Of a stretch of DNA of 64,000 nt, positions 22,052 to 64,000 are shown piece after piece. Position numbers and translations under genes: made by a program. The first letter of the stretch is position 1. Each line of letters starts with the position of its first letter. The stretch covers positions 1,766 through 65,765 of IMG/VR virus record IMGVR_UViG_2926488731_000001; one strand, given 5' to 3'. The notes below the pieces were generated by a model. That model was given only the letters and a program-made list of their open reading frames with translations. It ran no database searches and had not been told where the DNA came from. The DNA is from a virus. Taxonomy: Duplodnaviria > Caudoviricetes.

Positions 22052-22806
22052 TCAAACGCCCTCCTTTCGCTTAAAATTCCCGTGAAAATATCGTATTGGT
22101 TTACATCGAATACAAATACCTTACTTAGCGCTTAAAACAGCTCTTAGGCTTCGTTAGTAAGGCGTTAGCTAGGTGAAATACTTTCGAAATACATACGTCA
22201 TGCACCCCGAGTTAGAAAAATTGTGCGCTAATTTCGAACAGCAGTCGTGGGGTCTAGCGCCGTGCCCTTGGGGGTTTGGTCGTTAATGACGCTGCTCAAC
22301 GGTTTTTTATTCGTAATTCAAACGTATTTATTCATCGTTTTAATTTCTTTTATTCATTTCGTTGAATTTCGTATGCAATTTTAGTTTACATAATCACAGT
22401 TTCAGGAAGTTGATCGTTGTCATAAACGTTGTTGTTATGCGCTTTATAAAACGTTTGAAATTATCGATTATGCACGTTTTTATACATCGTTGATATGGCG
22501 CTGTTTGTGTGGCGCGTGCTGCGCGTAAAACTAACGCTGATTGCATAAGGTACGACCATCGAAATAGTTAGGGCTATGCATAAGTTATGCAAACGTTGTA
22601 TATGAACCCCTCGAGTTTGGAAGGCGTCTGTCCTCCGGAAGGACTTAGCGGATGTAGCCGTCACCCACACCGAAAAAGGTACGCCCCTCCCCGAAATCAT
22701 ACGTCCCACTCCCCCGTTTTCTTTTACGTTTACTCACTTGGGCTAAACGTATATAGCCGTATTCCTTCCTACTTATATAGCTAACGTACTGACAACGTAA
22801 TCCCCA
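22052..22806. other. Long non-coding region upstream of terL; candidate packaging (cos/pac) and late promoter region
   Basis: No convincing ORF; repeated (A)AACGTTG..TAT and TATGCA motifs; GC-rich core at 22240-22296. Confidence 0.5.
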
Positions 22807-22989
22807 CTAAATTATGCTTGGGTCAAGCGTGTATCTTACCGTCTCTCGCGTAGTTGCTTCGTCAACGATCGAACGTGTATCTATTGACCAATCGGGGACT
22901 CTCGCAACATCAGCTACGAAAATAGTGGTTTCAAACAACGGATTTCCTTCAAAATAGACGCCATATTTATCGCCATTCTTTTCGAACAC
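22807..22989 (-). CDS. Hypothetical protein
   Basis: GTG start with AAGGGAGG RBS. Confidence 0.55.
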   Translation of the reverse strand: MFEKNGDKYGVYFEGNPLFETTIFVADVARVPDWSIDTRSIVDEATTRETVRYTLDPSII

Positions 22990-23284
22990 ATAAACGACCT
23001 CCCTTCGCTAACCAACGATATCGATTATGAAAAAATTGCCCTTAAGACTTTTTCCGAAAGCGTACGCATCATCGTAAGTGTTAAACTTTAAATGCTGGCC
23101 GTTTTTGTCAAGAACGACTTTCCAAGTGTCAAAGCCTTCTTTTCCGACCCATAATGTCGTAGGTATTACGATAAGATAATACGGCTTTCTTTTCGCTTTC
23201 CACCGCCAAATTTTAAGCGAAAAATATAGCTTTAGAATAAATCTTTTAATCTCCGTCAGCCTCCCTTCGAATAAATTGCCCGAA

Positions 23285-23502
23285 TCCCATCCGTAGGAAT
23301 CGGCGGAATCATCTTTGTCTTTTTCTTTTTAAAGACCTACCGAATATACCCCCACACTACATAGAAGGCGACTGAAGGTCGCTATGTTTATTGTTTTTAA
23401 TTCGTTGTTATTACGTTGTTATTATTAGTATCCCATCGACAGGAATCGGCGGAATCCCATCCGTAGGAATCGGCCGTATCCTATCAACAGGAATCGGGGG
23501 AT
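23285..23502. repeat. 24-bp iteron-like repeats: three tandem (23431-23502) plus one isolated (23285-23308)
   Basis: tcccatcgacaggaatcggcggaa / tcccatccgtaggaatcggccgta / tcctatcaacaggaatcgggggat / tcccatccgtaggaatcggcggaa. Confidence 0.9.
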
Positions 23503-23888
23503 TTTCGCTCATAAAGCGGCATGTACATTTTCTTTAAGTGACCGCGATACGAAACCATTTTCGAAATAAGCACGCCTTCCTTTTCGAGGATATCTACTAG
23601 CGGCTTAATTCGATCTTTATGGATTCCCGTATCTGAACTAATCTGCTTGACGCTAGGGTACGCCCACATATACGTAGTACTGCTGTTTTGGCCGTTCACA
23701 TAAGCCTGTAAATATCCGTATAGCAACACACAGTCCCGCGCGGTCATGCCGTCATATTTTGCCTTTAGTTCCGGCAATAATTTGCGATAAATATCGTGAG
23801 GAATCGGCGTATATCCGACATCGTTGCCCGACAGCAAGCATTCCTTTTGACGTAAGACTTCGCGCTGTTCTTTGGTCAATTTATTCAT
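23484..23888 (-). CDS. Winged-HTH protein resembling the N-terminal domain of phage replication initiators
   Basis: LLYGYL...WAYPSVKQISSDTGI..DRIKPLVDILEKEGVL. Confidence 0.8.
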   Translation of the reverse strand: MNKLTKEQREVLRQKECLLSGNDVGYTPIPHDIYRKLLPELKAKYDGMTARDCVLLYGYLQAYVNGQNSSTTYMWAYPSVKQISSDTGIHKDRIKPLVDILEKEGVLISKMVSYRGHLKKMYMPLYERKSPDSC

Positions 23889-25286: not shown

Positions 25287-25366
25287 ATTACGTTTAACGT
25301 AATCTATAACTCTATAATAATTACGTTTAGCGTAATTGTCAACATAAAAATTACATTTTACGTAAT
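25287..25366. promoter_or_regulatory. Three 17-bp palindromic operators and a leftward sigA promoter
   Basis: ATTACGTTTAACGTAAT (25287), ATTACGTTTAGCGTAAT (25320), ATTACATTTTACGTAAT (25350); minus strand TTGACA-17-TATTAT with operator 2 as the spacer. Confidence 0.88.
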
Positions 25367-25430
25367 TTATTTCTTGAGAAGATGTATAATTAAGTTTATA
25401 AATAAGAAAATCGGAGGGTTGTGTACCAAA

Positions 25431-25667
25431 ATGGATTTAGTAATCGAGGTTAAACTTAAAAAGTTGTTAAAAGATCGAGGGTTAGATCAAAAGCAATTAG
25501 CGAAGATGTCAGGATTAACAGAACGAACTATTAGCGAACTGGCAAACGGAAAAATGAAACGTTATCCTAAAGAAGTTCTCGAAAAGATTATCGGGACTTT
25601 AGATATTAGAGACATTCGAGAATTAATCGACTTAGTACCGAAAGAAGACATTGACACGTGTAATTGA
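25431..25667 (+). CDS. XRE/Cro-CI family repressor (HTH_26-like)
   Basis: LKKLLKDRGLDQKQLAKMSGLTERTISELANG; ATG 25431 after GGAGGG. Confidence 0.9.
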   Translation: MDLVIEVKLKKLLKDRGLDQKQLAKMSGLTERTISELANGKMKRYPKEVLEKIIGTLDIRDIRELIDLVPKEDIDTCN

Positions 25668-25703: not shown

Positions 25704-25919
25704 TTGGGGAAACAAATAACGGTCAGAAAAGTCCTTCAAATTCTAAAGAAAGAAGGATTCGTCAAATCGCCTAACCATAAAGGTGGGGGAAGTCATCAGC
25801 GATATATACATGAAAAAGACCCCACGAGATATGCTGACATAAGCTTTCATAACAGCGGTCAGGTGATTCCGATAGGGACATTAAAAAATATAGAGAAAAC
25901 TACGGGGGTTAAATTCTAA
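25704..25919 (+). CDS. hicA: HicA toxin (mRNA interferase)
   Basis: LKKEGF...GGSHQRY...IPIGTLKNI. Confidence 0.92.
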   Translation: MGKQITVRKVLQILKKEGFVKSPNHKGGGSHQRYIHEKDPTRYADISFHNSGQVIPIGTLKNIEKTTGVKF

Positions 25920-25977
25920 CCCCTTGTCCCTAACCTAATTCCCCTTATCTCCAATAAACGTTAAGGAGTGATTAAAC

Positions 25978-26409
25978 TTGGCTTACAAAACCCATTACAT
26001 CTACCCTGTAGTCGTTGAAAAAGCCGAAGATGGTGGGATAGGCATGTACTTCCCCGATTTTCCCGGTACAGCAATCCTTGCAAAAGGCCTGATCGACGGG
26101 ATACAAAAAGCTAAAGAGATGCTCGCACATCTTATATTGGACAAAGAAGAGCAGGGAGAAGTTATACCCGAGCCTTCAGACCCGGACAAAATTGAATTGT
26201 TTAGCTCAAGTGACCGTGTAGTTTTTATTGAAGTATACATGCCACCCTTTCGAGATGAGGCGGCGTTTAAGTCAGTTACTAAAAACTGCACGTTGCCTAG
26301 ATGGCTTCGTGATGCGGGCGAAGAGGCCGGTTTGAATTTTTCCCACTTGTTACAGGCCTCGATTAAAGATGCGTTGAATATAAATTCTTACGATGATAGG
26401 CGGCCTTAA
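25978..26409 (+). CDS. hicB: HicB antitoxin
   Basis: YPVV...YFPDFPG...IPEPS...VTKNCTLPRWL...AGLNFS (RHH C-terminus). Confidence 0.92.
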   Translation: MAYKTHYIYPVVVEKAEDGGIGMYFPDFPGTAILAKGLIDGIQKAKEMLAHLILDKEEQGEVIPEPSDPDKIELFSSSDRVVFIEVYMPPFRDEAAFKSVTKNCTLPRWLRDAGEEAGLNFSHLLQASIKDALNINSYDDRRP

Positions 26410-26464: not shown

Positions 26465-26839
26465 TTATTTCAGTATTCTTCGATTGAGTCTCGTTGGCAA
26501 TCGATAGTCCCTGCCGTCTGTCGCCACTTCTTCGGCCAATTTAAACGAACGCTCTCCTGAGTGCCTCCGACCCTGCTGCGACGGACTAAGCAGCGGATAT
26601 TCGGCACGCGACATCTTGTCCGGGTGCATGTCGGTCAGCTCTTCGCGTAAAATCAACGTTGCTAAACGGTCGAGCTGTGCGCCAGCAGGTCGTTTGCCCG
26701 TAGCTTGCACGTAGTCATTAATCAGTTGATCGACAGTTTCTATTCGTTTTTGCCGATCGGCAATAGGATTTTCGTACAACTCATCGACGTAACGCTGAAA
26801 ATCTTCCGTATATTTATCCGTAAATGTAAAACTAGTCAT
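26465..26839 (-). CDS. Hypothetical protein coupled to the sigma-region-4 gene
   Basis: ATGA overlap with the upstream stop; LDRLATLILREELTD.HPDK...EYPLLS. Confidence 0.75.
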   Translation of the reverse strand: MTSFTFTDKYTEDFQRYVDELYENPIADRQKRIETVDQLINDYVQATGKRPAGAQLDRLATLILREELTDMHPDKMSRAEYPLLSPSQQGRRHSGERSFKLAEEVATDGRDYRLPTRLNRRILK

Positions 26840-27129
26840 CCGGCATCCTCCAAGCTTGACCAATCGTCATATATTCGTTGTATCTTCACAATGGCGGAAT
26901 CGATTGCTAGGCTGACCGCCGGTTGTGTCGTATTCATTCGCTCCCCCACGTCTTCTTGCGTTAAATCAGCGCCATAAATCCATGCTAACGCTTCCTGCTG
27001 ACGCTCCGTTAAGTCCGCCAATGTAATAGCCCTCCGAAGGTCTACGAGCGCACATACGGCGTTATAATCGCCTTTATATTGACGTGCGTGCAATGCGTGG
27101 TACTCTCGCAATAATGTACGAACATTCAA
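26836..27129 (-). CDS. Sigma-70 region-4-only HTH protein (probable late activator)
   Basis: LTERQQEALAWIY..DLTQEDVGERMNTTQPAVS; RBS AGGAGG. Confidence 0.85.
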   Translation of the reverse strand: MNVRTLLREYHALHARQYKGDYNAVCALVDLRRAITLADLTERQQEALAWIYGADLTQEDVGERMNTTQPAVSLAIDSAIVKIQRIYDDWSSLEDAG

Positions 27130-27335: not shown

Positions 27336-27364
27336 TTGACTTTCGTTTAATACGCTTGTATAAT
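27336..27364 (+). promoter_or_regulatory. Near-consensus sigA promoter
   Basis: TTGACT-17-TATAAT. Confidence 0.8.
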
Positions 27365-27398
27365 TGCCGTAAAATTACAACAGATTCGGGGTGTTTTT

Positions 27399-39961: not shown

Positions 39962-40639
39962 CTACCCCTCCGCCCTCAATACGTCAATTTTTCTGTCTAA
40001 CTCGGCGCGTTCTTGAAGCAATCGAAGCAATTTTTCTCGTTTCTCTATTCGATCGATGGTATCTCTTATTATTGGTAGACCTGCCATATTTCCTGATATT
40101 GTCATATGGAACTCACCACCGGTATTACATACAAAAGATTCCATAAAAAGTTCGGGTAAATTATTCTTATCAAAGAAACTTAAAATACCGGCTTGTATTT
40201 CTTTAAACGCTTTTCGTTCGTAGTCAATCCCTATGTTCACATAAAAATAGCCGCCAATATCGCTCGTGATAAACAAATCGCCATGTCCATCCTTTTCGAT
40301 GACGTAAAGGCTCCCCATTGTAAAGTGGTGATCACTCTTAACTGCTTCTAGAACATCGCCCTCCTCTAGCTTTTTCAACTTTTCGATTATTTCCTGTTTA
40401 CTCGTTGAAATGTCGTATTCGATGTAGCCGTCTCGTATTGAGAGTTCGACGCATTCATCCATACCTCCGCGATAAACATGTCGACAGTCATATCCTGCTT
40501 CGTCTTTGTGGCACACAAAACCGTACACGTTTTTAAGTTCGTACCACTTGCCGACCTCCGTATCGCTGTCAAAATGTTCGTTATTCGTAAGTCTAAAACG
40601 TTTGGCCTTCCGAATCTGCTCAACTGTATACATTACCAT
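39962..40639 (-). CDS. Hypothetical protein (SH3-like modules)
   Basis: EGDVLEAV...FTMGSLYVI; operon packing. Confidence 0.65.
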   Translation of the reverse strand: MVMYTVEQIRKAKRFRLTNNEHFDSDTEVGKWYELKNVYGFVCHKDEAGYDCRHVYRGGMDECVELSIRDGYIEYDISTSKQEIIEKLKKLEEGDVLEAVKSDHHFTMGSLYVIEKDGHGDLFITSDIGGYFYVNIGIDYERKAFKEIQAGILSFFDKNNLPELFMESFVCNTGGEFHMTISGNMAGLPIIRDTIDRIEKREKLLRLLQERAELDRKIDVLRAEG

Positions 40640-48636: not shown

Positions 48637-49350
48637 CTAAAATTCGAATTGTTCGTCTAAGACTTTCTTGTCGATCGCTTCGTCCGATGCCTCCTTCAGC
48701 AATTCGACGAGGTCTTTTTCCTCTCGAAAGTTTGCGAGTTCTTCGTATTTAAAATCGAAACCAATGTACGCTTTTGCTGCTTCGATTGCTTCGTCCGGCG
48801 CATCGCCACTTTCAAGAGAATACGTTTTGTCGACTTGACTAATATGAACAGCGTCACCTACGAGCGTGTAGTCTTTCGAAAACTTCTTCGCTGCCTTTTC
48901 GAGTTTGTCATAGTCGGCTATAAGATTATTAACATGAAATTCCGCCGTATCTATGACTCTATACGTCTTATATTCGAGATCATAAACCGGAATAATAGCG
49001 AACATTTTGCGTTTTCCGCCGGCTTTACACGTTAAGCACTCGTCTTTCCCCGGCTTGAAGTATGTCATTAGATCGGCATTTATGTCCTTTGGCGAATGTA
49101 GGCACGTGTGTTTTCTTAGCTTATAGTCGTACCCCTTGCCGTTGTATTCTTTATCCTCGTGAACGAAGTAAAAGAACCAATCGTCAGGCTTTGCAAGCAT
49201 TATAAATGTTCTACCTTCGGCATTTACCTCGCCGTGCCTGCCCATTCGTACGTAGCGTGTAACCCCATCAGGAAACTCGCTATCTCCGCCTTGTGCCGCT
49301 TTGTCACGCGCCTCTTCACGTTGCTTTAAAATGTCACGAATATTGCTCAT
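48637..49350 (-). CDS. Single-stranded DNA-binding protein (gp32-like, putative Zn site)
   Basis: FVH...HTC...C..C; acidic/aromatic C-terminus EQFEF; replication-module position. Confidence 0.65.
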   Translation of the reverse strand: MSNIRDILKQREEARDKAAQGGDSEFPDGVTRYVRMGRHGEVNAEGRTFIMLAKPDDWFFYFVHEDKEYNGKGYDYKLRKHTCLHSPKDINADLMTYFKPGKDECLTCKAGGKRKMFAIIPVYDLEYKTYRVIDTAEFHVNNLIADYDKLEKAAKKFSKDYTLVGDAVHISQVDKTYSLESGDAPDEAIEAAKAYIGFDFKYEELANFREEKDLVELLKEASDEAIDKKVLDEQFEF

Positions 49351-49716: not shown

Positions 49717-50220
49717 TCAACCTCCAACTAACGAAAGCACCCGACAATGATTTTCGTATTCATCTTTTGCCCGTGCAATGTCCGTCTTACATTCGTTTAT
49801 TTTCGCTTCTATTTCGTTTATTCTTTCTTGGATAAGCGCACGTGTTTTCGGATTACGTGCGCGGGCTTTATTTAGTGTCTGCTCGCCTTTTTCGATTAGC
49901 AGATGCGCCATTTCAAGTTCAAGCGCTCGCGTTGTTTTCGTTAGCAGACGTTTTGCTTTTCGTCGTTCCCTCTCGAAGATTGGCTGAAGAAACGCAGCGT
50001 CTGCCGTAGGTCTAACAGTGATTATTTTTCGTTCGTCAACATTGACAACGAACGTTTTTCCTTCGTTTTCGTAGATAATTTTATTACTCCCCTGCGAGCT
50101 AATGTACTTTGCTCGTCGTAGTTCTTCCCGAAACCAAGTTTCCGCATTTTCTAAAGCAACCCCAAATCGCAAATGTGCCCGTTCTATTGCGTGTAATGTC
50201 GCTGTGTAACGTTTGGTCAT
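49717..50220 (-). CDS. Hypothetical protein (T.HA.ER N-terminus plus coiled coil)
   Basis: ORF track; HAIER...IITV pattern. Confidence 0.7.
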   Translation of the reverse strand: MTKRYTATLHAIERAHLRFGVALENAETWFREELRRAKYISSQGSNKIIYENEGKTFVVNVDERKIITVRPTADAAFLQPIFERERRKAKRLLTKTTRALELEMAHLLIEKGEQTLNKARARNPKTRALIQERINEIEAKINECKTDIARAKDEYENHCRVLSLVGG

Positions 50221-50450: not shown

Positions 50451-51083
50451 CTACCCCACAAAGCGTGTAGGTACGGTAAAATAGTCGTGGTAGCTACCAA
50501 AACGATTGGCGTCGTATTGGCGTGCTATTCGTCTAATTCGTTTCTTCATCGCTTTGTGACAAGAGAGTCCGACTTGCTTGGCGGCTTGTCGGTATGAATT
50601 TGTCTGTACGAAGGCTGATATCGATGTGAGAGTCTGTTCATCGGCCTTCCGCAAAAGTTCTGCGACTAGTTGGCGCTGGTCGCGGTTTTTTTGTAAATTT
50701 ACTATAAACTCGTCATCGGTTGTTGGCGCAACCGAAACGACTTCGAATATTTCTAAATCGTCACCATCCTCGTCTACAAGGTAATTGTCTGCGAGGTAAC
50801 TATTCTCTCGGCTCATTTTCCTGATTAAATCCAAACACCCATTCTTTACAGCTACAGCCATTTCTTTCTTAAAATTCCCTATTGCAATATCTAGGTTTTC
50901 AACAACTTTCATTAACTTATCATTGATCATTGACTCTATATCAGCCTCATCTATTTTGTATTTAGCTGACAACTTCTCAACAATTCTTTTGTTATCACTA
51001 TAATAAGTGAAGTAAATCTCCGAAAAAACTAAATCGCTTCTTGTTTTTTGATATTCGGATATTAAGTTTTTCATGTTCTCCAT
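50451..51083 (-). CDS. Phage-encoded sigma-70/ECF-like transcription factor
   Basis: Region-2-like F..IY...DIES..DKL...F......KN..LDLIRK; region-4-like SYRQAAKQVGLSCHK. Confidence 0.75.
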   Translation of the reverse strand: MENMKNLISEYQKTRSDLVFSEIYFTYYSDNKRIVEKLSAKYKIDEADIESMINDKLMKVVENLDIAIGNFKKEMAVAVKNGCLDLIRKMSRENSYLADNYLVDEDGDDLEIFEVVSVAPTTDDEFIVNLQKNRDQRQLVAELLRKADEQTLTSISAFVQTNSYRQAAKQVGLSCHKAMKKRIRRIARQYDANRFGSYHDYFTVPTRFVG

Positions 51084-51087
51084 CCTC

Positions 51088-51133
51088 CTATACTATTAAC
51101 AACGTATAAAAATATTTGTTGGGGTGTGTTTTA
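51088..51133 (-). promoter_or_regulatory. Putative phage-sigma (type A) promoter upstream of the sigma gene
   Basis: AAACACACCCCA-N15-CGTTGTTAATAGTA then AGGAGG; same motif at 61873-61916. Confidence 0.7.
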
Positions 51134-51167
51134 AGAAAATCTTTTTATTTTTGTGTTGTTGTGTTAT

Positions 51168-51200
51168 ATTATACATATATGATTTAGTTTTGTAAATCAT
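51168..51200 (-). promoter_or_regulatory. sigA promoter for the sigma gene overlapped by a palindromic operator
   Basis: TTTACA-17-TATAAT on minus; ATGATTTA-gttttg-TAAATCAT inverted repeat at 51179-51200. Confidence 0.7.
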
Positions 51201-51233
51201 TTTTGAAATATTTAACTAAATGGAGATGGTGCA

Positions 51234-51449
51234 ATGATTTCGTATAAACCTTTATTACAACAATTAAAATTAAGAAAAATATCTATGAGGCAGCTACAGC
51301 GAGACCTTAGCATTTCTAGTGCGACAACAACTAAATTATCGAACAATCAATCAGTCACGATGTCCACTATTGAAAAAATTTGCCTGTATCTCGACGTTCC
51401 GATCGAACAGGTCGTTCGTATTGTGCCAAACGAATCAGACAAGCAGTAA
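51234..51449 (+). CDS. XRE/Cro-CI family repressor divergent from the sigma gene
   Basis: MISYKPL...IS.ATTTKL..NQSVTMSTIEKICLYL. Confidence 0.9.
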   Translation: MISYKPLLQQLKLRKISMRQLQRDLSISSATTTKLSNNQSVTMSTIEKICLYLDVPIEQVVRIVPNESDKQ

Positions 51450-55446: not shown

Positions 55447-55931
55447 ACTTCTTTCGTCCCCTTTCCGTCATAGATTCGTTCCCCTAAGATTACTAATCTT
55501 CCATCACAACATTTAGTCCTATATTTTTGCGGTTTCTCTGCGACCCTCTTGGTAAAAGCTTCGTAGTTGACTCCGCACACTTCGCACTTATATTCGACAG
55601 CCATTCCGACACAATACCTGCCCGAACTTGCGACGCCTAATCGTAGCAACTCTTGCTCAAACGTAGCGTCGCCATCGCTATGTGGAAGTCCTTTAACGAA
55701 CATCACGTAATGGATTAATTCATGCTTTAGGATATCGATTATTACCTGAGTAGCACCATATTTTATTAAATCGCCACTTAATTCAATCTTGACGATCTCA
55801 TTTCCTACGATTAAACATCGTCCTAAAGTTCGCTTTAGTCGATTGTTAATTTTAATAGGTATCGTTCTACACATTCCGTATTCCTTCGCCAGGAAATCGT
55901 CGGCATGTCGCATTAATTCTTCGTTGGTCAT
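55440..55931 (-). CDS. SprT-like zinc metalloprotease
   Basis: RLKRTLGR, ILKHELIH..., H.D...F, C..C Zn ribbon. Confidence 0.88.
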   Translation of the reverse strand: MTNEELMRHADDFLAKEYGMCRTIPIKINNRLKRTLGRCLIVGNEIVKIELSGDLIKYGATQVIIDILKHELIHYVMFVKGLPHSDGDATFEQELLRLGVASSGRYCVGMAVEYKCEVCGVNYEAFTKRVAEKPQKYRTKCCDGRLVILGERIYDGKGTKEVC

Positions 55932-56104
55932 TTGTGATCAACTCCAATCATCGATAACTTTTAGTAATTCTCTGTACGCCTTAGTCATCCCTTTATAATA
56001 ATCAGCACTATGCCAACTTTCATCACCTTCTGCACGAGCTCTATTTTCTTCTGCTCTCAATAAACGATTAACTATTACACTTCTGAATTTCGTTTTATCA
56101 ATAG

Positions 56105-59219: not shown

Positions 59220-59576
59220 TTAAAACCCATAATCTTGCGTGCTAATACCTTCGACAGTAATTCCGAGTATTTCCAATGTGTTCCTTATTCCCTCACATAC
59301 CCCAAGACTGTACATCGTCCCCGAGTCATCTTCGCACATCCACATGTTCTTGTAGTATGCGAGCAATTTTTCTTCGGGCGTCTTTTCGATTTCATATCCG
59401 TTAACCATTGCGGCCATTAGCGTTTGCAGATCGATCTTATTCAATGGCATTAAAGATGGATTACCCTTGTATTTATATCCTTCGGCTTTCTTTCGAATAA
59501 CATCTTCCATAATTCCTTGCGTCTCTACGTAAGCTAACGAGTCTGCAACGTCTGTTGTTACTGTTGGTCTGTACAT
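59220..59576 (-). CDS. Hypothetical protein
   Basis: NGYEIEKTPEE motif. Confidence 0.65.
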   Translation of the reverse strand: MYRPTVTTDVADSLAYVETQGIMEDVIRKKAEGYKYKGNPSLMPLNKIDLQTLMAAMVNGYEIEKTPEEKLLAYYKNMWMCEDDSGTMYSLGVCEGIRNTLEILGITVEGISTQDYGF

Positions 59577-60229
59577 TTCGTTTCCTCCTTTAATATCCCC
59601 AGAATGTAATCAAGATACTGTCGTACATGTCCGTTAACAATAACAGCAGCCAATAACGTGCTCATCGTAGTTCCATCGCTCCTTCTGACTGTCATTTTAG
59701 TGTACGGCTTAATTCCATAGATTCTGAAAAACTTTCTATATCTACCATAGTTCGTAAATTGCTCCTTAGACTTGCCACTCACTTTCGCCAATTTTATAAG
59801 AAATTCACTAATGGCTTCGTAAACCGCCAAACCCTGTGGTGTAATCTCTGCGTTCTTATAGCGAGCATTCTCCTTGTAAAGAGGTAGATCATTAACAAGA
59901 TATTTAGCCATCGTACTTTCTAATCTAACTCTTATTGCTCGATATTGACGTTGTTTCTTTTCCTCTTGTGTTTTACCTTCGATAGCTTTTACGACTTCTT
60001 TCGGCGATCCATTTATAGCAATCTTTTTAATCTCCGCAAGCTCATCTTCAAAGTTCTTTGATATCTTGTTAATTTCTATAGTCAGTCTCGTCTCCATCAT
60101 TTCTAAGCTTGACTGTATCCCCCGTACTAACTCGAACATACTCGCTTGCTGCCCCGTTACTTCCCCAATCGCCCCAATTACTTCGTCATTCCTGCCGAAT
60201 ACTTTACTTAAGAAATTTTGTGATGCCAC
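59558..60229 (-). CDS. Hypothetical protein
   Basis: GGAGGGG RBS; GTG start. Confidence 0.65.
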   Translation of the reverse strand: MASQNFLSKVFGRNDEVIGAIGEVTGQQASMFELVRGIQSSLEMMETRLTIEINKISKNFEDELAEIKKIAINGSPKEVVKAIEGKTQEEKKQRQYRAIRVRLESTMAKYLVNDLPLYKENARYKNAEITPQGLAVYEAISEFLIKLAKVSGKSKEQFTNYGRYRKFFRIYGIKPYTKMTVRRSDGTTMSTLLAAVIVNGHVRQYLDYILGILKEETKCTDQQ

Positions 60230-60247: not shown

Positions 60248-61060
60248 CTAATTAATAATTTCGTAATCTGCTTCGAATATCTCAACACCATTTTGCCGAT
60301 CTATAGCAACGCTCATCTGCCGCCAAAACTCATCTAAGCGTTTAAACTCTCTCTGAAAATTTGGGTCAGCTTCCGCAAGTCTGGCGAAATCTCCTACGTT
60401 CGTGATTATCCAGGAATATTTCTTTTGCCACTCGGATAGTTCTTCGAGTGCCGAGTACATTTCTACGCCGAGTTTTACGCCGTATGGGCGTTCGCTTGTC
60501 GTTGTTGTTTCCAAAGCCTGCCGAGCTAGGTCTGCATCACGTTGTGCCATTCGCTCTCGTTGCTCGGCTTGTTCAGCGCGCTTCTTCGCCGCTTCTGCTT
60601 CTGCCAATGCCTTTTCTTTTTCCGCTATAGCCTTTCGCTCTCTTCGTTTAAATTCTTCGATTTCCCTACGAGACATTTCCGTCAGCTTTTTTGTAGAACC
60701 GTCAGGCATTTCGCGAGGCTTTTCGAGTTCTTCGTCAGTGAATTCCGCTAAAGTTGTTAAAACGGTTATCGATGAGGGTAGTCGGGACCCCGGGGTTCCC
60801 GATTTTTCTGCGAACCTTTCGTAAACCTTAATGAACCTGTTTGCGTGTCGTCGTGTAATGTTTAAACTCTTAGAGCACCAATGCTCCCAACCCTGATACC
60901 CTTCGAATCCATACTCTTTCGGATTGTCTCGAACCCACTTCAGTCTTCTTCCTATCTCGAATATTGCTTCGCCTGCAACACGTTGGTAGGCGTTGATTTC
61001 TGCGGTCATTACGTTCAGGTCTTTCGATAGTTCAGCAATACCGTTCGAAATTTCCGTCAT
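60248..61060 (-). CDS. DUF3102-domain protein
   Basis: GEAIFEIGRRLKWV...W..W...A.RFIKVY; MSRRE coiled coil. Confidence 0.8.
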   Translation of the reverse strand: MTEISNGIAELSKDLNVMTAEINAYQRVAGEAIFEIGRRLKWVRDNPKEYGFEGYQGWEHWCSKSLNITRRHANRFIKVYERFAEKSGTPGSRLPSSITVLTTLAEFTDEELEKPREMPDGSTKKLTEMSRREIEEFKRRERKAIAEKEKALAEAEAAKKRAEQAEQRERMAQRDADLARQALETTTTSERPYGVKLGVEMYSALEELSEWQKKYSWIITNVGDFARLAEADPNFQREFKRLDEFWRQMSVAIDRQNGVEIFEADYEIIN

Positions 61061-61227
61061 GGCTCTCTCCTTTCTAATTCCTCATAATGGCCATCTAACA
61101 AATTCCAAACCCAATCTTTAAACTCTTCTTCTACTTCTTCCTCCGATAAGTCAGATGGCAATTCGACGATCTCTTCTTGTGTGCACCCAGCAAATCCAGT
61201 ATGAAGAAAGAACTTATACGTTTTCAT
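61057..61227 (-). CDS. Small acidic hypothetical protein (56 aa)
   Basis: MKTYKFFLHTGFAGCTQEEIVEL...FKDWVWN; RBS GGGGAG. Confidence 0.65.
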   Translation of the reverse strand: MKTYKFFLHTGFAGCTQEEIVELPSDLSEEEVEEEFKDWVWNLLDGHYEELERREP

Positions 61228-61431
61228 TCCGTTCACTCCCCTTAACAGCGGCCGGCGCCACCTTTTCTTTTTTATTTTAATTTTTTCTTTTGGAACTAAG
61301 ACCCCCTTCGAATAGATACCTCTACGAACACATTCGTTTTCTTATATAGATACGTTCCGACAAAACTTGTTTTTGGCGGTATGTTTTATCTAGTTAAATA
61401 CGATGGTTCTCGTTTAATACTCGTTATTGTT

Positions 61432-61488
61432 AGTGTGACGTATAACCATATATGGCTACGTACCACATGGCGTCAACGTCACATGGTT
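61432..61488. repeat. Short degenerate repeats directly after the HTH stop codon
   Basis: Minus strand CCATGTGACGTTGACG / CCATGTGGTACGTAG / CCATATATGGTTATACG / TCACAC. Confidence 0.6.
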
Positions 61489-61858
61489 AGAATATTCCGA
61501 GGTTACTTATGGGCTTTATCGTATATCTAGCGTTTTCCCAAATGCCGCCTTTTTGCCTTGCGCGAACCTTTTCGACTAAAGGACTGCCGTTCCAACGATA
61601 ATCACACAACGCCCTTATTCGTCTGTTGGCCGTTTCTCTCGTAACTTTAAGCCGGTTAGCTATGAGTTCTTGCGAGGGAAAGCAGTTGCCATCCGCATCC
61701 ATGAACGCTGCCAAGACGCAAAGTGTCTGCCATCTTTCGGCGCCCATATCGGCTATTAGACCGCTGTGAACCGCATCGACGTACATCTTAACGAAGATAC
61801 GCGTCTCGGCCTTGCCGGAAGTTATGGAATATTCTCGCTGTGATTCAACGCTGAGCAA
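61487..61858 (-). CDS. Winged-HTH protein resembling a replication initiator N-terminal domain
   Basis: TLCVLAAFMDADGNCFPSQELIANRLKVTRETANRRIRAL...NARY. Confidence 0.85.
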   Translation of the reverse strand: MLSVESQREYSITSGKAETRIFVKMYVDAVHSGLIADMGAERWQTLCVLAAFMDADGNCFPSQELIANRLKVTRETANRRIRALCDYRWNGSPLVEKVRARQKGGIWENARYTIKPISNLGIF

Positions 61859-61870
61859 TTTCGATCGCCT

Positions 61871-62128
61871 CCTTTACTTTTAATAACGAAAAATGACAAC
61901 GCAGTGGGGTGTGTTTCTCAAAAATATTTTTCGTCCTTACTTATAAACAGGGCCACGGCACTTGCAAATTGCACCATTTTCCCGAAAATAATTTTTTCGC
62001 CTTCACTTAAGACTGGGAAGCGTGCGCCAGAAAACGCACCAAATTTACAAATATATTTTTTCCACCTACTTATAAACAGGAACCGCTATATTCAAAAGTG
62101 CACCATACTTTCGAAATTATTTTTGCTA
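61871..62128 (-). repeat. Tandem array of four ~65-bp promoter-like units
   Basis: Each unit has an A/T tract, a TGGTGC (x3) or CACCCC (x1) box, a 17-19 nt variable spacer and a ..TWAAGT box. Confidence 0.8.
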
Positions 62129-62188
62129 CAGTAAACGACAGGAATATATGGTAAAATGTACTTGTACAAAACATAAGGGGGTTATCGT

Positions 62189-62974
62189 GTGGCTAAAAAG
62201 AAGGAAAAGAAGAAAAAGCCGTTTTATAGGCGGTGGTGGTTTATTGTAATCGCAATATTTTTTATCTTATTTATGATAGGCAGCATGGCCGACCCACCGG
62301 AAGAATCGGCGGAGAAGGCGGAGGATAAGCCAAAAGTCGAGGCAAAAAAGGAAGACAAGGCTGAAGTGGCGAAGGCTGAAAAGAAAGAAGCCAAGGAAGT
62401 AGCGAAGGTAGACAAAGCCGACAAGAAGGAAGAGACGAAATCGAAAGAAGATAAAAAAGAAGTAGCGAAGACGAACGAGAAAAAATCGGAAGAAGTAAAA
62501 GCTAATGAAGTTAAGCCGAAAGAAGAAAAGAAAAAGCCCGAAGCTAAGCCTAAGCAACCAGCATCTTTAGACGACAAAATAAAGAAAACGATTGCAAAAG
62601 TCGATACCAAAGAAACATTGTCCGATCTGCAAGTTAACGATAACTATGGCGTTGACATCGAGGGCGCAAAACTCGCAATCGTAACCTTTAAGGACGAAGT
62701 TGGCCTTAGCGCCAAAATGACGAAAAAGATATTTTTAAGTGACTCCGCGAAATTATTCGAAAGACTGTTCGAAAAGCACTCGGAACTACATAGCGTTACG
62801 CTCAAATGGGAACTTCCGCTCACCGATGCGTATGGAAATTCGGAGCACAGCGAAGTGCTCCGAATAGAATTAGATCGTGCAACAGCCGAAAAGATAAACT
62901 GGGCGGCTTTCGATACGAAAAATTACGAAACCGTTGCGATGCAATATTTCGAGCATCCAGCGTTCAATAGATAA
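62189..62974 (+). CDS. Membrane-anchored extracellular protein with Lys/Glu-rich linker (candidate lysogenic conversion / superinfection exclusion)
   Basis: KKPFYRRWWF plus TM, K/E low-complexity stalk, C-terminal D.YGN domain; extended -10 TGgTAAAAT upstream. Confidence 0.8.
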   Translation: MAKKKEKKKKPFYRRWWFIVIAIFFILFMIGSMADPPEESAEKAEDKPKVEAKKEDKAEVAKAEKKEAKEVAKVDKADKKEETKSKEDKKEVAKTNEKKSEEVKANEVKPKEEKKKPEAKPKQPASLDDKIKKTIAKVDTKETLSDLQVNDNYGVDIEGAKLAIVTFKDEVGLSAKMTKKIFLSDSAKLFERLFEKHSELHSVTLKWELPLTDAYGNSEHSEVLRIELDRATAEKINWAAFDTKNYETVAMQYFEHPAFNR

Positions 62975-62975
62975 G

Positions 62976-63012
62976 AAGAGACCCCGCCGAAAATGACGGG
63001 GTTTTTATTTTT
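62976..63012. terminator. Terminator between the convergent membrane-protein and integrase genes
   Basis: accccg.c-gaaaat-g.cggggt followed by a T-run. Confidence 0.8.
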
Positions 63013-63028
63013 CAGGTGTTAAATCAGC

Positions 63029-64000
63029 TTATAAATACTTTCGTAAATTTTCCGCTACTTCTTCTTTATCCAAGTGCAAATACTGACTCGTTACTGCGAG
63101 ATTGCTATGACCTAATGCACGAGATATGTCCGTTATTTTCGCACCTTTTTCCAAAAGTGATTTTGCGAACCCTCTCCGTAATGCGTGCGGATTTATGTTT
63201 TTTAAACCGTACTGCTTCGCATACTTATTCAAACGTTTTTGAATATTGTTATTCGACGGGCTTGTCGCTATAATCCCGCCTTGCTTTGTGATGAAAACGT
63301 AGGTATTATCCTTCCTATATTCACGCCTAATTAAGTCGTTTTGTTTTATCAAGACAGTTAGCAGACGATGTAACACGTCATCGAATGGCAATAATAATTG
63401 TTCGTGATTCTTCATTATTGCGCCGTCAAGCCGTAGTAACTTTTCCTCGAAATCGATGTGTTTGTTTTCAAGTTGCGCAATCGTTTTTATTCGAATCCCT
63501 GTTCGGTACATCAATAACGCTGCCGTCGCATCCCGTAACTGTACGAAATCCCCTAAATCTAAAACAGAAAGCAAAGCGTTTATGTTATTTTCAGTCGCGC
63601 CCTCCTTGACGTTGCTGTCGACCTTTACCTTAACAGTTTTCCAAAAACGTACTGTAATCCAGCCATTATCGAAACAACGCGACAAGAACGCCTTTAAACA
63701 CTTTACGCGCGTTAATTTCGTTTGCGGACTGACGTCCATACTCGCAAGCCAGTCGTAAATTGAGTCGTTGGTAATTTCGTCTATGTAGTCGATTTTTAAC
63801 GTTTTTCTGAAATGCTTTACGTACACATTATAGTCGCTAATCGTTCTTTCCCGATAACCGCTAATCTCCATCTGACGTGTAACAGTCGCTAATGCTTTTT
63901 CGATAGTCAATCGGTCAGATTCCGGTCTAGACGTTTTGGGAATGGCGAATATATCGGATAAATCTTCGTTGACAGTTAAAATCTGTTTCTTTTTCGTCAA
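63029..64000 (-). CDS. Tyrosine recombinase / phage integrase
   Basis: RD...TGIR, K, HALRR, LGH...Y catalytic set; start at the window edge. Confidence 0.92.
   Translation of the reverse strand: MTKKKQILTVNEDLSDIFAIPKTSRPESDRLTIEKALATVTRQMEISGYRERTISDYNVYVKHFRKTLKIDYIDEITNDSIYDWLASMDVSPQTKLTRVKCLKAFLSRCFDNGWITVRFWKTVKVKVDSNVKEGATENNINALLSVLDLGDFVQLRDATAALLMYRTGIRIKTIAQLENKHIDFEEKLLRLDGAIMKNHEQLLLPFDDVLHRLLTVLIKQNDLIRREYRKDNTYVFITKQGGIIATSPSNNNIQKRLNKYAKQYGLKNINPHALRRGFAKSLLEKGAKITDISRALGHSNLAVTSQYLHLDKEEVAENLRKYL

Follow-up and report, generated by a model that had tools for sequence, protein, structure and literature searches.

A stack of four promoter-like units with two kinds of -35 box ahead of the early operon of a Bacillales prophage, and a phage sigma factor that may read one of them

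In the 64,000-nucleotide (nt) stretch of DNA analysed here (the window: positions 1,766 to 65,765 of the IMG/VR virus record IMGVR_UViG_2926488731_000001), which is nearly all taken up by a ~64-kb prophage whose genes lie on the minus strand, four head-to-tail units of ~65 nt stand at 61868–62126 on that strand, ahead of the early operon. The proximal unit shares its -35-like box with a site in front of the gene for a divergent extracytoplasmic function (ECF)-like sigma factor of the phage, named P0001, and the three distal units carry a different box. The best explanation of the whole arrangement would be a stack of four sigma-dependent promoters, one belonging to a switch run by the phage's own sigma factor and three read by the sigma factor of a related phage; this complete reading is given a little less than an even chance.

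Every unit consists of an A/T tract (GAAAAAATWWTTT), a -35-like box, a free spacer, a -10-like box ending in AAGT and a purine-rich tail that resembles a Shine-Dalgarno sequence. The units and the gene that follows them are arranged as listed below.

62067–62126, minus strand: U1 (distal), with an A/T tract at 62114–62126, TGGTGC at 62100–62105, a 19-nt spacer and CCTGTTTATAAGTA at 62067–62080
62004–62063, minus strand: U2, with an A/T tract at 62049–62063, TGGTGC at 62036–62041 and CCCAGTCTTAAGTG at 62004–62017
61938–61999, minus strand: U3, with an A/T tract at 61985–61999, TGGTGC at 61971–61976 and CCTGTTTATAAGTA at 61938–61951
61868–61933, minus strand: U4 (proximal), with an A/T tract at 61920–61933, ACACACCCCA at 61905–61914, N16 and CGTTATTAAAAGTA at 61875–61888
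61868–61875, minus strand: Shine-Dalgarno sequence of U4, AAAGGAGG, followed by the TTG start of the next gene
61487–61858, minus strand: first early gene, encoding an HTH_36 DNA-binding protein (phrog_12720), TTG start

These coordinates confirm the four units and the promoter layout that an earlier note on this DNA had described, together with the distinct -35 box of the distal units, which follow the pattern (A/T)TGGTGC, N18–19 and second box, and the identical second box of two of them (U1 and U3). The ending TWAAGT that the note had ascribed to the second box holds for U2 and fails for U1, U3 and U4 (the endings are TATAAGT, TTAAGT or AAAAGT), and the TWAAGT-type pattern as originally written returned zero matches. 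The purine-rich tail of U4 is a genuine Shine-Dalgarno sequence and those of the other units are degenerate (GGTGG, AAGGCG and AGGACG), which shows that entire promoter-plus-leader segments were duplicated.

The array lies beyond chance expectation because one 14-mer is present twice in it, 129 nt apart, because TGGTGC occurs three times at a period of 64–65 nt, because the pattern TGGTGC-N24-29-TAAGT has 11 matches in the host genome (4.76 Mb, 63 contigs, 37.6% G+C), three of them in the array, against three for a reversed control pattern, and because a matrix built from U1–U3 gives these units scores of 30.5–36.9, which are circular for the units themselves, against 12.1 for the next-best site of the window. 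The repeat search returned two families of three copies each, spaced 65/64 and 66/63 nt apart; Tandem Repeats Finder did not report the array because its copies are less than 70% alike. Across U1–U3 the boxes are invariant in 15 of 19 columns and the spacers in 3 of 19, with a pairwise spacer identity of 26–37%, near random. Neither the pattern nor the matrix scan found another site like U1–U3 in the window or the host genome, so that the absence of further TGGTGC-type units, previously noted by eye, holds for both.

The candidate reader of U4 is encoded downstream of the early operon.

50451–51083, minus strand: P0001, a divergent ECF-like two-domain sigma factor of 210 amino acids (aa)

P0001 itself is matched by no Pfam or PHROG model. 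A word-index search with it returned 2 proteins, and an exhaustive HMMER search returned 200 relatives of ~205 aa at E ≤ 0.001. P0001 and 98 near-full-length relatives among the 150 matches listed were aligned (99 sequences), and Pfam assigned Sigma70_r2 to 24 of these members, Sigma70_r4_2 to 8, Sigma70_ECF to 3 and Sigma70_r4 to 2; many also match assorted helix-turn-helix models. Compared with solved ECF sigma factors, the family profile matched SigE (3e-6), SigW (1e-5) and SigK (5e-4) over the N-terminal half (region 2), the SigW match running near full length (profile positions 16–185). The AlphaFold (AF2) model built with the alignment reached a predicted local distance difference test (pLDDT) score of 89.5, with C-terminal helices at 149–188, compared with an unusable 38 from the single sequence. 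Among the Foldseek matches listed for this model, 48 of 49 were sigma factors or holoenzyme sigma chains; their template-modelling (TM) scores were low (0.23–0.36, one match at E ≤ 0.001), as expected for two domains on a flexible linker. Sigma region 2 and region 4 are thus both indicated by the family Pfam matches, the profile and the structure, and on these sequence and model grounds the earlier assignment of this open reading frame (ORF) as a sigma factor is accepted, with P0001 regarded as a divergent ECF-like member.

A co-transcribed anti-sigma factor is usual for ECF sigmas, though not universal; no such partner was seen here, the next ORF (49717–50220) showing weak coiled-coil matches only. 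A tblastn search of P0001 against 50,697 phage records gave no match, and nothing was found on metagenome contigs. The family profile likewise had no match at E ≤ 0.001 in phage KLEB27-1, although an annotated sigma factor occupies the same position there.

Three sites of the ACACCCC type, with A/T-rich sequence upstream and a second box that starts with CG, were found in the present phage, all on the minus strand and all intergenic: U4 and the first two sites below. A predicted switch adjoins the second of the three.

51091–51129, minus strand: sigma-gene site of the U4 type, with ACACACCCCA at 51120–51129, N15 and CGTTGTTAATAGTA at 51091–51104
27355–27395, minus strand: third, looser ACACCCC-type site, with AACACCCCG at 27387–27395, N17 and CGGCAATTATACAAG at 27355–27369
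51163–51216, minus strand: housekeeping-type promoter upstream of the sigma gene, with TTTACA at 51191–51196, 17 nt and TATAAT at 51168–51173
51234–51449, plus strand: P0003, a small XRE-type helix-turn-helix gene (71 aa), divergent from the sigma gene

The sigma-gene site lies 7 nt upstream of the Shine-Dalgarno sequence of that gene and has ACACACCCCA in common with U4, which bears out the match that had been proposed between the two; ACACCCCA occurs exactly twice in the window. A third genome match of ACACCCCA-N14-18-CGTT, on contig C15, was rejected as it falls inside a coding region. The site at 27355–27395 precedes a small ORF and the region-4-only ORF 26836–27129, referred to as the late-regulator cluster. 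U4 probably serves as a promoter for P0001.

The housekeeping-type promoter of the sigma gene is covered by an operator-like 24-nt imperfect palindrome. P0003 is a candidate lysogeny repressor, and the palindrome region (51163–51216) and this gene probably form the lysogeny switch of the phage. The earlier remark that no CI/ImmA module stands beside the integrase is right in that nothing CI-like is found there, but a likely repressor module exists at the sigma gene, and a switch placed at that position would explain the lack of one near the integrase. No LexA-type box was found in the regulatory regions; the single GAAC-N4-GTTC of the window lies inside the helicase gene.

The units were compared with known promoter classes. 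No housekeeping-type promoter (TTGACA-16–18-TATAAT with at least 9 of 12 matches, and A at position 2 and T at position 6 of the -10) was present on either strand of 61400–63100, compared with 2.7 ± 1.5 in shuffles; U1 and U3 contain TATAAG, in which the final T of the housekeeping -10 is missing. ECF-type promoters have AAC in the -35 and CGT in the -10, with 16–17 nt between them. The second box starts with CGTT in U4 and at the sigma-gene site and with CCTG or CCAG in U1–U3, and no ECF-like -35 containing AAC was found at 16–17 nt, the boxes being ACACACCCCA and TGGTGC; the AAC within GAAACAC of U4 is 24 nt from CGTT. A sigma-54 promoter has the form TGGCAC-N5-TTGCW, with GG and GC 12 nt apart. 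This reading was rejected on geometry, since TTGCA follows TGGTGC in U3 only, with a GG–GC distance of 10 nt, and U1 and U2 have no GC element after TGGTGC.

The strongest evidence that units matching the sigma-gene site are promoters of the phage sigma factor comes from relatives. The HTH_36 protein led to 16 phage records, 15 genome loci and 74 IMG/VR loci, and the sigma family to 8 IMG/VR loci, 10 of 400 further genomes of the order and 5 of 400 of the class. Almost all of the sigma genes have an A/T tract, a box, a spacer and a second box just before the Shine-Dalgarno sequence, often with a housekeeping-type promoter and a divergent small regulator further upstream; two loci (L063 and L185) have no clear unit. 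The first box varies between phages and is common, within a phage, to the sigma-gene site and to the heads of the early or other operons. Phage Mgbh1 has GTGTGCGAAA at its sigma gene and early head; L046 has ACTCCGCAC at four sites and L047 the same box at three; L048 has ATGCCTAAC and L049 TGACCCAC, each at two sites; and KLEB27-1 has ATGTCCCGAT at three sites, one of them before its annotated sigma factor gp51. The sharing of a box between sigma-gene site and operon head is also seen in L050/L091 (two names for the same contig) and in proviruses G404–G407. Thus, when box type and sigma gene are compared across relatives, the pairing recurs in Mgbh1, KLEB27-1 and eight IMG/VR phages, about ten lineages, with the -35 box nearly invariant within the regulon of each phage. 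This co-variation also suggests that the first box carries the specificity. One further locus, L036 in a Siminovitchia genome, proved to be an ordinary host ECF sigma gene outside the phage family and was set aside.

In several relatives (L064 4648–5880, which is KLEB27-1 gp50 with a small unannotated ORF; G404 ~55700–55990; L051; and L053), the sigma gene is closely preceded by a large TPR-like regulator and by a short ORF that resembles a secreted peptide, with the C-termini ...DIRPGG and ...AINAIGG. The pair looks like an arbitrium-type AimR/AimP system feeding the sigma gene; the present phage has no such pair.

Promoter stacks of mixed type are widespread in the group. Upstream regions of at least 150 nt were available for 72 of the 74 IMG/VR loci, corresponding to 51 distinct regions that were classified by eye. 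In about half of these heads, coding sequence reaches the HTH_36 gene, ~13 have one unit, and 12 have two or three tandem units, nearly always with unlike first boxes (L083, L095, L101, L102, L113, L118, L123, L128, L129, L130, L149 and L152; L129 has two units of one type). The four units of the present array make up the longest stack seen. In four complete proviruses with three units (G404–G407), the single sigma gene of the family was located and its upstream site read. Together with KLEB27-1 and the present phage they form a set of six. Every one of the six has a unit that matches the site before its own sigma gene, in a proximal position in G405 and the present phage and in a distal one in KLEB27-1, G404, G406 and G407. 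This unit is also the best by global identity in five of the six, G406 giving a tie (29/28/29 of 48), where the match is based on a common TGTAC box together with an identical CTTAGTCGTTATAAG block; global site–unit identity is noisy because the spacers are free. To the eye, the non-matching boxes resemble the matching boxes of other phages: unit b of KLEB27-1 (TTGCGCGAT) resembles the sigma-gene sites of L051–L054 and L187, the ATGTCCC units of G405 resemble KLEB27-1, and GTGTGCGA of G407 resembles Mgbh1 and G405. Such resemblance fits both cross-talk between phages and leftovers of recombination.

Stacks are not confined to the heads of early operons. A second two-unit stack stands ahead of a dUTPase/ThyX operon in G404 (contig ~40843–40900, minus strand), and the second box type of G407 recurs after its DNA polymerase gene (contig 45498, minus strand). 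The region-4 genes of G404 and G407 directly follow a methyltransferase gene and have no promoter unit. In related contigs from two other sequencing runs, the array is kept at roughly 90% identity with one unit fewer, and skips of 65 nt and of 74 minus 10 nt are seen inside the array among close relatives. On a contig of run X4, compared over 61397–61864, the array and its flanks are kept and the HTH_36 gene is replaced by ~430 nt of unrelated sequence; the first early gene can thus be exchanged as a cassette, whereas the promoter stack in front of it is conserved.

Based on the arrangement of these sites, a possible mechanism was proposed for the activation of the prophage. The array would be a stack of four sigma-dependent promoters, all directed into the early (replication) operon. 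Host polymerase would make P0001 from the housekeeping-type promoter unless the XRE protein P0003 blocks it; P0001 would then feed back on its own gene and open the early and late-regulator operons. Its small regulon would consist of the three sites at the sigma gene, at the early operon and at the late-regulator cluster (~27.4 kb), so that P0001 would be the master switch of lytic development. In the distal units the architecture is unchanged but the -35 is of another specificity class (TGGTGC). Their most likely reader would be a sigma factor of the same phage-sigma kind, supplied by a relative of another specificity type that superinfects or is co-resident, and the early operon could then be switched on in trans. 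The anatomy, the identity of P0001 as a sigma factor and the co-variation of the boxes with the phage are shown; that the units fire, what the XRE protein does and which factor reads the distal units are what we infer from this arrangement. A response of U1–U3 to a sigma factor from a relative of another specificity type is the favoured but tentative proposal, somewhat short of an even chance, and prophage induction by such eavesdropping, suggested in the earlier note, is put forward as a hypothesis. Of the two inputs that the note had assigned to the early operon, the pairing of the phage's own sigma factor with the proximal unit is well supported by the comparison with relatives. The second box type is supported as anatomy and as a design that recurs in the phage group, and no cognate sigma factor for TGGTGC was found in the host genome or the sigma loci examined.

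Several results weigh against this mechanism. The conservation of boxes over spacers carries a p-value of 3e-5 that is optimistic, the boxes having been defined after the data were seen. The host genome contains one sigma factor of the P0001 family and no second member, TGGTGC stands at the -35 position in none of the 28 other sigma loci examined, and an IMG/VR scan with TGGTGC-N17-20-CCYRKTYWTAAGT returned 14 matches that are all chance-like, with no A/T tract or intergenic promoter context by eye. In most relatives the -10-like box begins with a CG dinucleotide, which U1–U3 lack. In G404 and in G407 a non-matching box is found again at a second operon, so that some of the extra units, at least, would work for the phage itself and not for cross-talk. 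Capture of the three units from three donor phages could also produce conserved boxes beside diverged spacers, in which case the pattern would reflect past selection in the donors and not present function. Among the sigma loci, the box nearest to TGGTGC is that of L057 (AAGTGCACGTTTTT / GTGCACGTTTT). The sigma-gene sites of L051 and L187 are also without CG and have CC-started second boxes (CCTTATTATAAAGTG and CCCCTATAAAG), which indicates that such a box can occur at a genuine sigma-gene site.

Of the alternatives, the one that survives best, although unlikely, holds that the distal units are leftovers of swaps of sigma and early modules by recombination at operon heads, and that U1–U3 are silent here. 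A head that changed its sigma type would gain a matching promoter and keep its old or captured ones, and unequal crossing-over would shift the unit number. The frequency of mixed-box heads, the likeness of non-matching boxes to the matching boxes of other phages, the differing unit number among close relatives, and the failure to find a reader for TGGTGC in host sigma genes, the host genome or the IMG/VR scans all speak for this model. However, neutral copies should decay evenly, and all three TGGTGC boxes and their A/T tracts are intact beside spacers of near-random identity; the array also persists in relatives at the identity given above, even behind a different first gene, and the two non-matching ATGTCCC units that G405 keeps have intact boxes as well.

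An improbable alternative is that the distal units are read by another factor of the same phage, or by its own sigma factor in a looser mode, as a temporal stack that prolongs expression of the early operon. The recurrences in G404, where the second unit and the matching type have a -10 in common (CGCAGTTA), and in G407 agree with such a stack, as does the presence of the region-4-only protein encoded at 26836–27129; nothing ties that ORF to the TGGTGC units. Against it, the matrix scan gave no other TGGTGC-type site in the window, and no second member of the sigma family was found: ORFs 59558–60229, 48637–49350 and 39962–40639, compared as possible hidden paralogues, gave hhalign probabilities below 1%, and Pfam on 14 early or middle ORFs found no other sigma factor at E ≤ 1. 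In addition, -35 boxes are nearly invariant within regulons, and TGGTGC shares nothing with ACACCCC.

Slightly less probable again is a reading of the distal units by an alternative sigma factor of the host, such as a stress-activated ECF sigma, through which host physiology would trigger induction. The host has 29 matches to sigma region 2, many of ECF size, and the lack of a LexA-type box means that some other route of induction is needed. ECF sigmas usually autoregulate; TGGTGC is absent from the 260 nt upstream of all 29 host sigma genes, the genome has no other site like U1–U3, and box type differs between phages even where their hosts are related, all of which argue against this reader. 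It is very improbable that the repeats are repressor operators, iterons for the HTH_36 protein or small-RNA precursors, since, although they are direct repeats on one helix face (~65 nt, roughly 6 turns) beside an HTH_36 gene, no inverted repeat of the CI/Cro operator kind is common to the units, the same unit type precedes sigma genes without a nearby HTH_36 gene, in one relative the array is followed by another first gene, Rfam has 0 matches at E ≤ 1 in 61400–62400, the array folds as RNA no better than shuffles (z = -0.42) and no terminator-like site lies within it on the minus strand, results that weaken the operator or small-RNA option named in the earlier note.

The proposed mechanism resembles several known systems in part. 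SigW of Bacillus subtilis is an ECF (group 4) sigma factor with an autoregulated promoter and the consensus TGAAAC-N16-CGTA. P0001 is similarly a two-domain protein of about 200 aa with profile matches to SigW, SigE and SigK, a site before its own gene, and a CGT-started -10-like box in U4 and at the sigma-gene site. In contrast, it has no direct Pfam match and no visible anti-sigma partner, its -35 is ACACCCC instead of an AAC motif and varies between phages, and its gene is viral and stands behind a predicted repressor-guarded housekeeping promoter. The early promoters A1, A2 and A3 of coliphage T7 are tandem, about 125 nt apart and read by the host housekeeping holoenzyme; they resemble the array in that several promoters of one direction are stacked before the early genes, whereas the array is without a housekeeping-type promoter and mixes two box types. 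The virulent phage SPO1 uses host SigA for its early genes and has a sigma cascade of gp28 and gp33/34. As in SPO1, a phage sigma factor would redirect the host core polymerase to phage promoters with boxes of their own, whereas the temperate phage described here appears to place even its early operon under its own sigma factor.

Phage-encoded sigma cascades of lytic Bacillus phages are treated in PMC13401047. According to the review PMC8270828, the nonA gene of prophage SPbeta is transcribed by sigma factors (Orf199–Orf200) of the infecting phage SP10, which provides a precedent for cross-talk between a phage sigma factor and a prophage promoter: a prophage promoter that answers the sigma factor of an incoming phage is the mechanism proposed for U1–U3. 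In that case, nonA is a single abortive-infection gene read by the sigma factor of an unrelated lytic phage, whereas the predicted target here would be an entire early operon, with a tripled unit stacked on the phage's own promoter. The same review describes SigK/SigE-dependent and stress-induced SigA promoters for SPbeta sprB, so that one prophage gene is served by several sigma factors and different conditions give the same output; the readers of those promoters are known host sigmas and no periodic array of homologous units is involved. No description of the sigma family, its regulon or the mixed promoter stacks was found in searches of the open-access literature, and the words "sigma" and "promoter" are absent from the Mgbh1 genome paper.

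If the proposed mechanism is correct, a private ECF-like sigma factor would run lytic development in a widespread group of temperate phages of Bacillus, Paenibacillus and related hosts. Promoter specificity would differ between phages, and the head of the early operon would record the sigma types that activate it. It could then be predicted from sequence which phages cross-activate which prophages, with a bearing on prophage induction by superinfection, on how related phages compete and on how stable lysogens are in mixed communities; naturally orthogonal sigma/promoter pairs would also be supplied. A wider generalization, doubtful on balance, is that private pairs of sigma factor and -35 box constitute "activation types" in these temperate Bacillales phages, a positive-control counterpart of the immunity types defined by repressor and operator, and that stacks of non-matching units connect the early operon of a prophage to the sigma factors of other types. 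Expression of such a sigma factor by a relative of the right type in the same cell would then make a resident prophage wake or be woken, and the stacks would form a network of trans-activation among phages.

The remaining features of the prophage were annotated by a PHROG scan of 86 ORFs and by Pfam on 23 ORFs. From the high end, the order is integrase, a plus-strand lysine-rich membrane protein (P0002), the array, the early operon and the P0001 gene, followed by DNA polymerase and nucleotide-metabolism genes, the region-4-only protein, and then packaging, head, tail and lysis genes. The early operon encodes the HTH_36 protein, which PHROGs also link weakly to replication initiators, a DnaC-like loader, a DnaB-like helicase and a primase.

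63029–64000, minus strand: tyrosine integrase (PHROG/Pfam), cut by the window end
62981–63002: terminator-like hairpin after the integrase
62189–62974, plus strand: P0002, a lysine-rich membrane-anchored protein (phrog_8263) between the array and the integrase, divergent
26836–27129: region-4-only ORF, with sigma region 4 and no other sigma domain by Pfam

P0002 has one membrane segment and a conserved C-terminal domain (phrog_8263), and is possibly a surface protein expressed in the lysogen. In the upstream region 62140–62188 (plus strand) the scan found no -35/-10 pair; TGGTAAAAT, an extended -10 form, lies ~30 nt before the GTG start. A search of IMG/VR with P0002 gave no match, and the one match in a BLAST of 61480–62990 against 44 host-family genomes was 61 nt long, fell on the start of P0002 and had no array next to it. 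After the first early gene, a 427-nt gap (61060–61487) contains a small acidic ORF (MKTYKFF...) and an A-rich stretch, annotated by none of the libraries used.

Two regions lie further from the array. In the intergenic region 25290–25374, between an XRE gene at 25374–25667 (plus strand), which is followed by HicA/HicB-like ORFs at 25704–26409, and small ORFs on the minus strand, a TTGACA-17-TATTAT promoter is flanked by three 17-bp palindromes (ATTACG-N5-CGTAAT), which give the prophage a second operator set of the classic kind. Direct repeats of ~25 nt (GATTCCGCCGATTCCT..GATGGGAT) occur in two to three copies in a 776-nt gap at 22709–23484, which adjoins a second HTH_36 or replication-O-like ORF (23484–23888), and may mark an origin or a packaging site.

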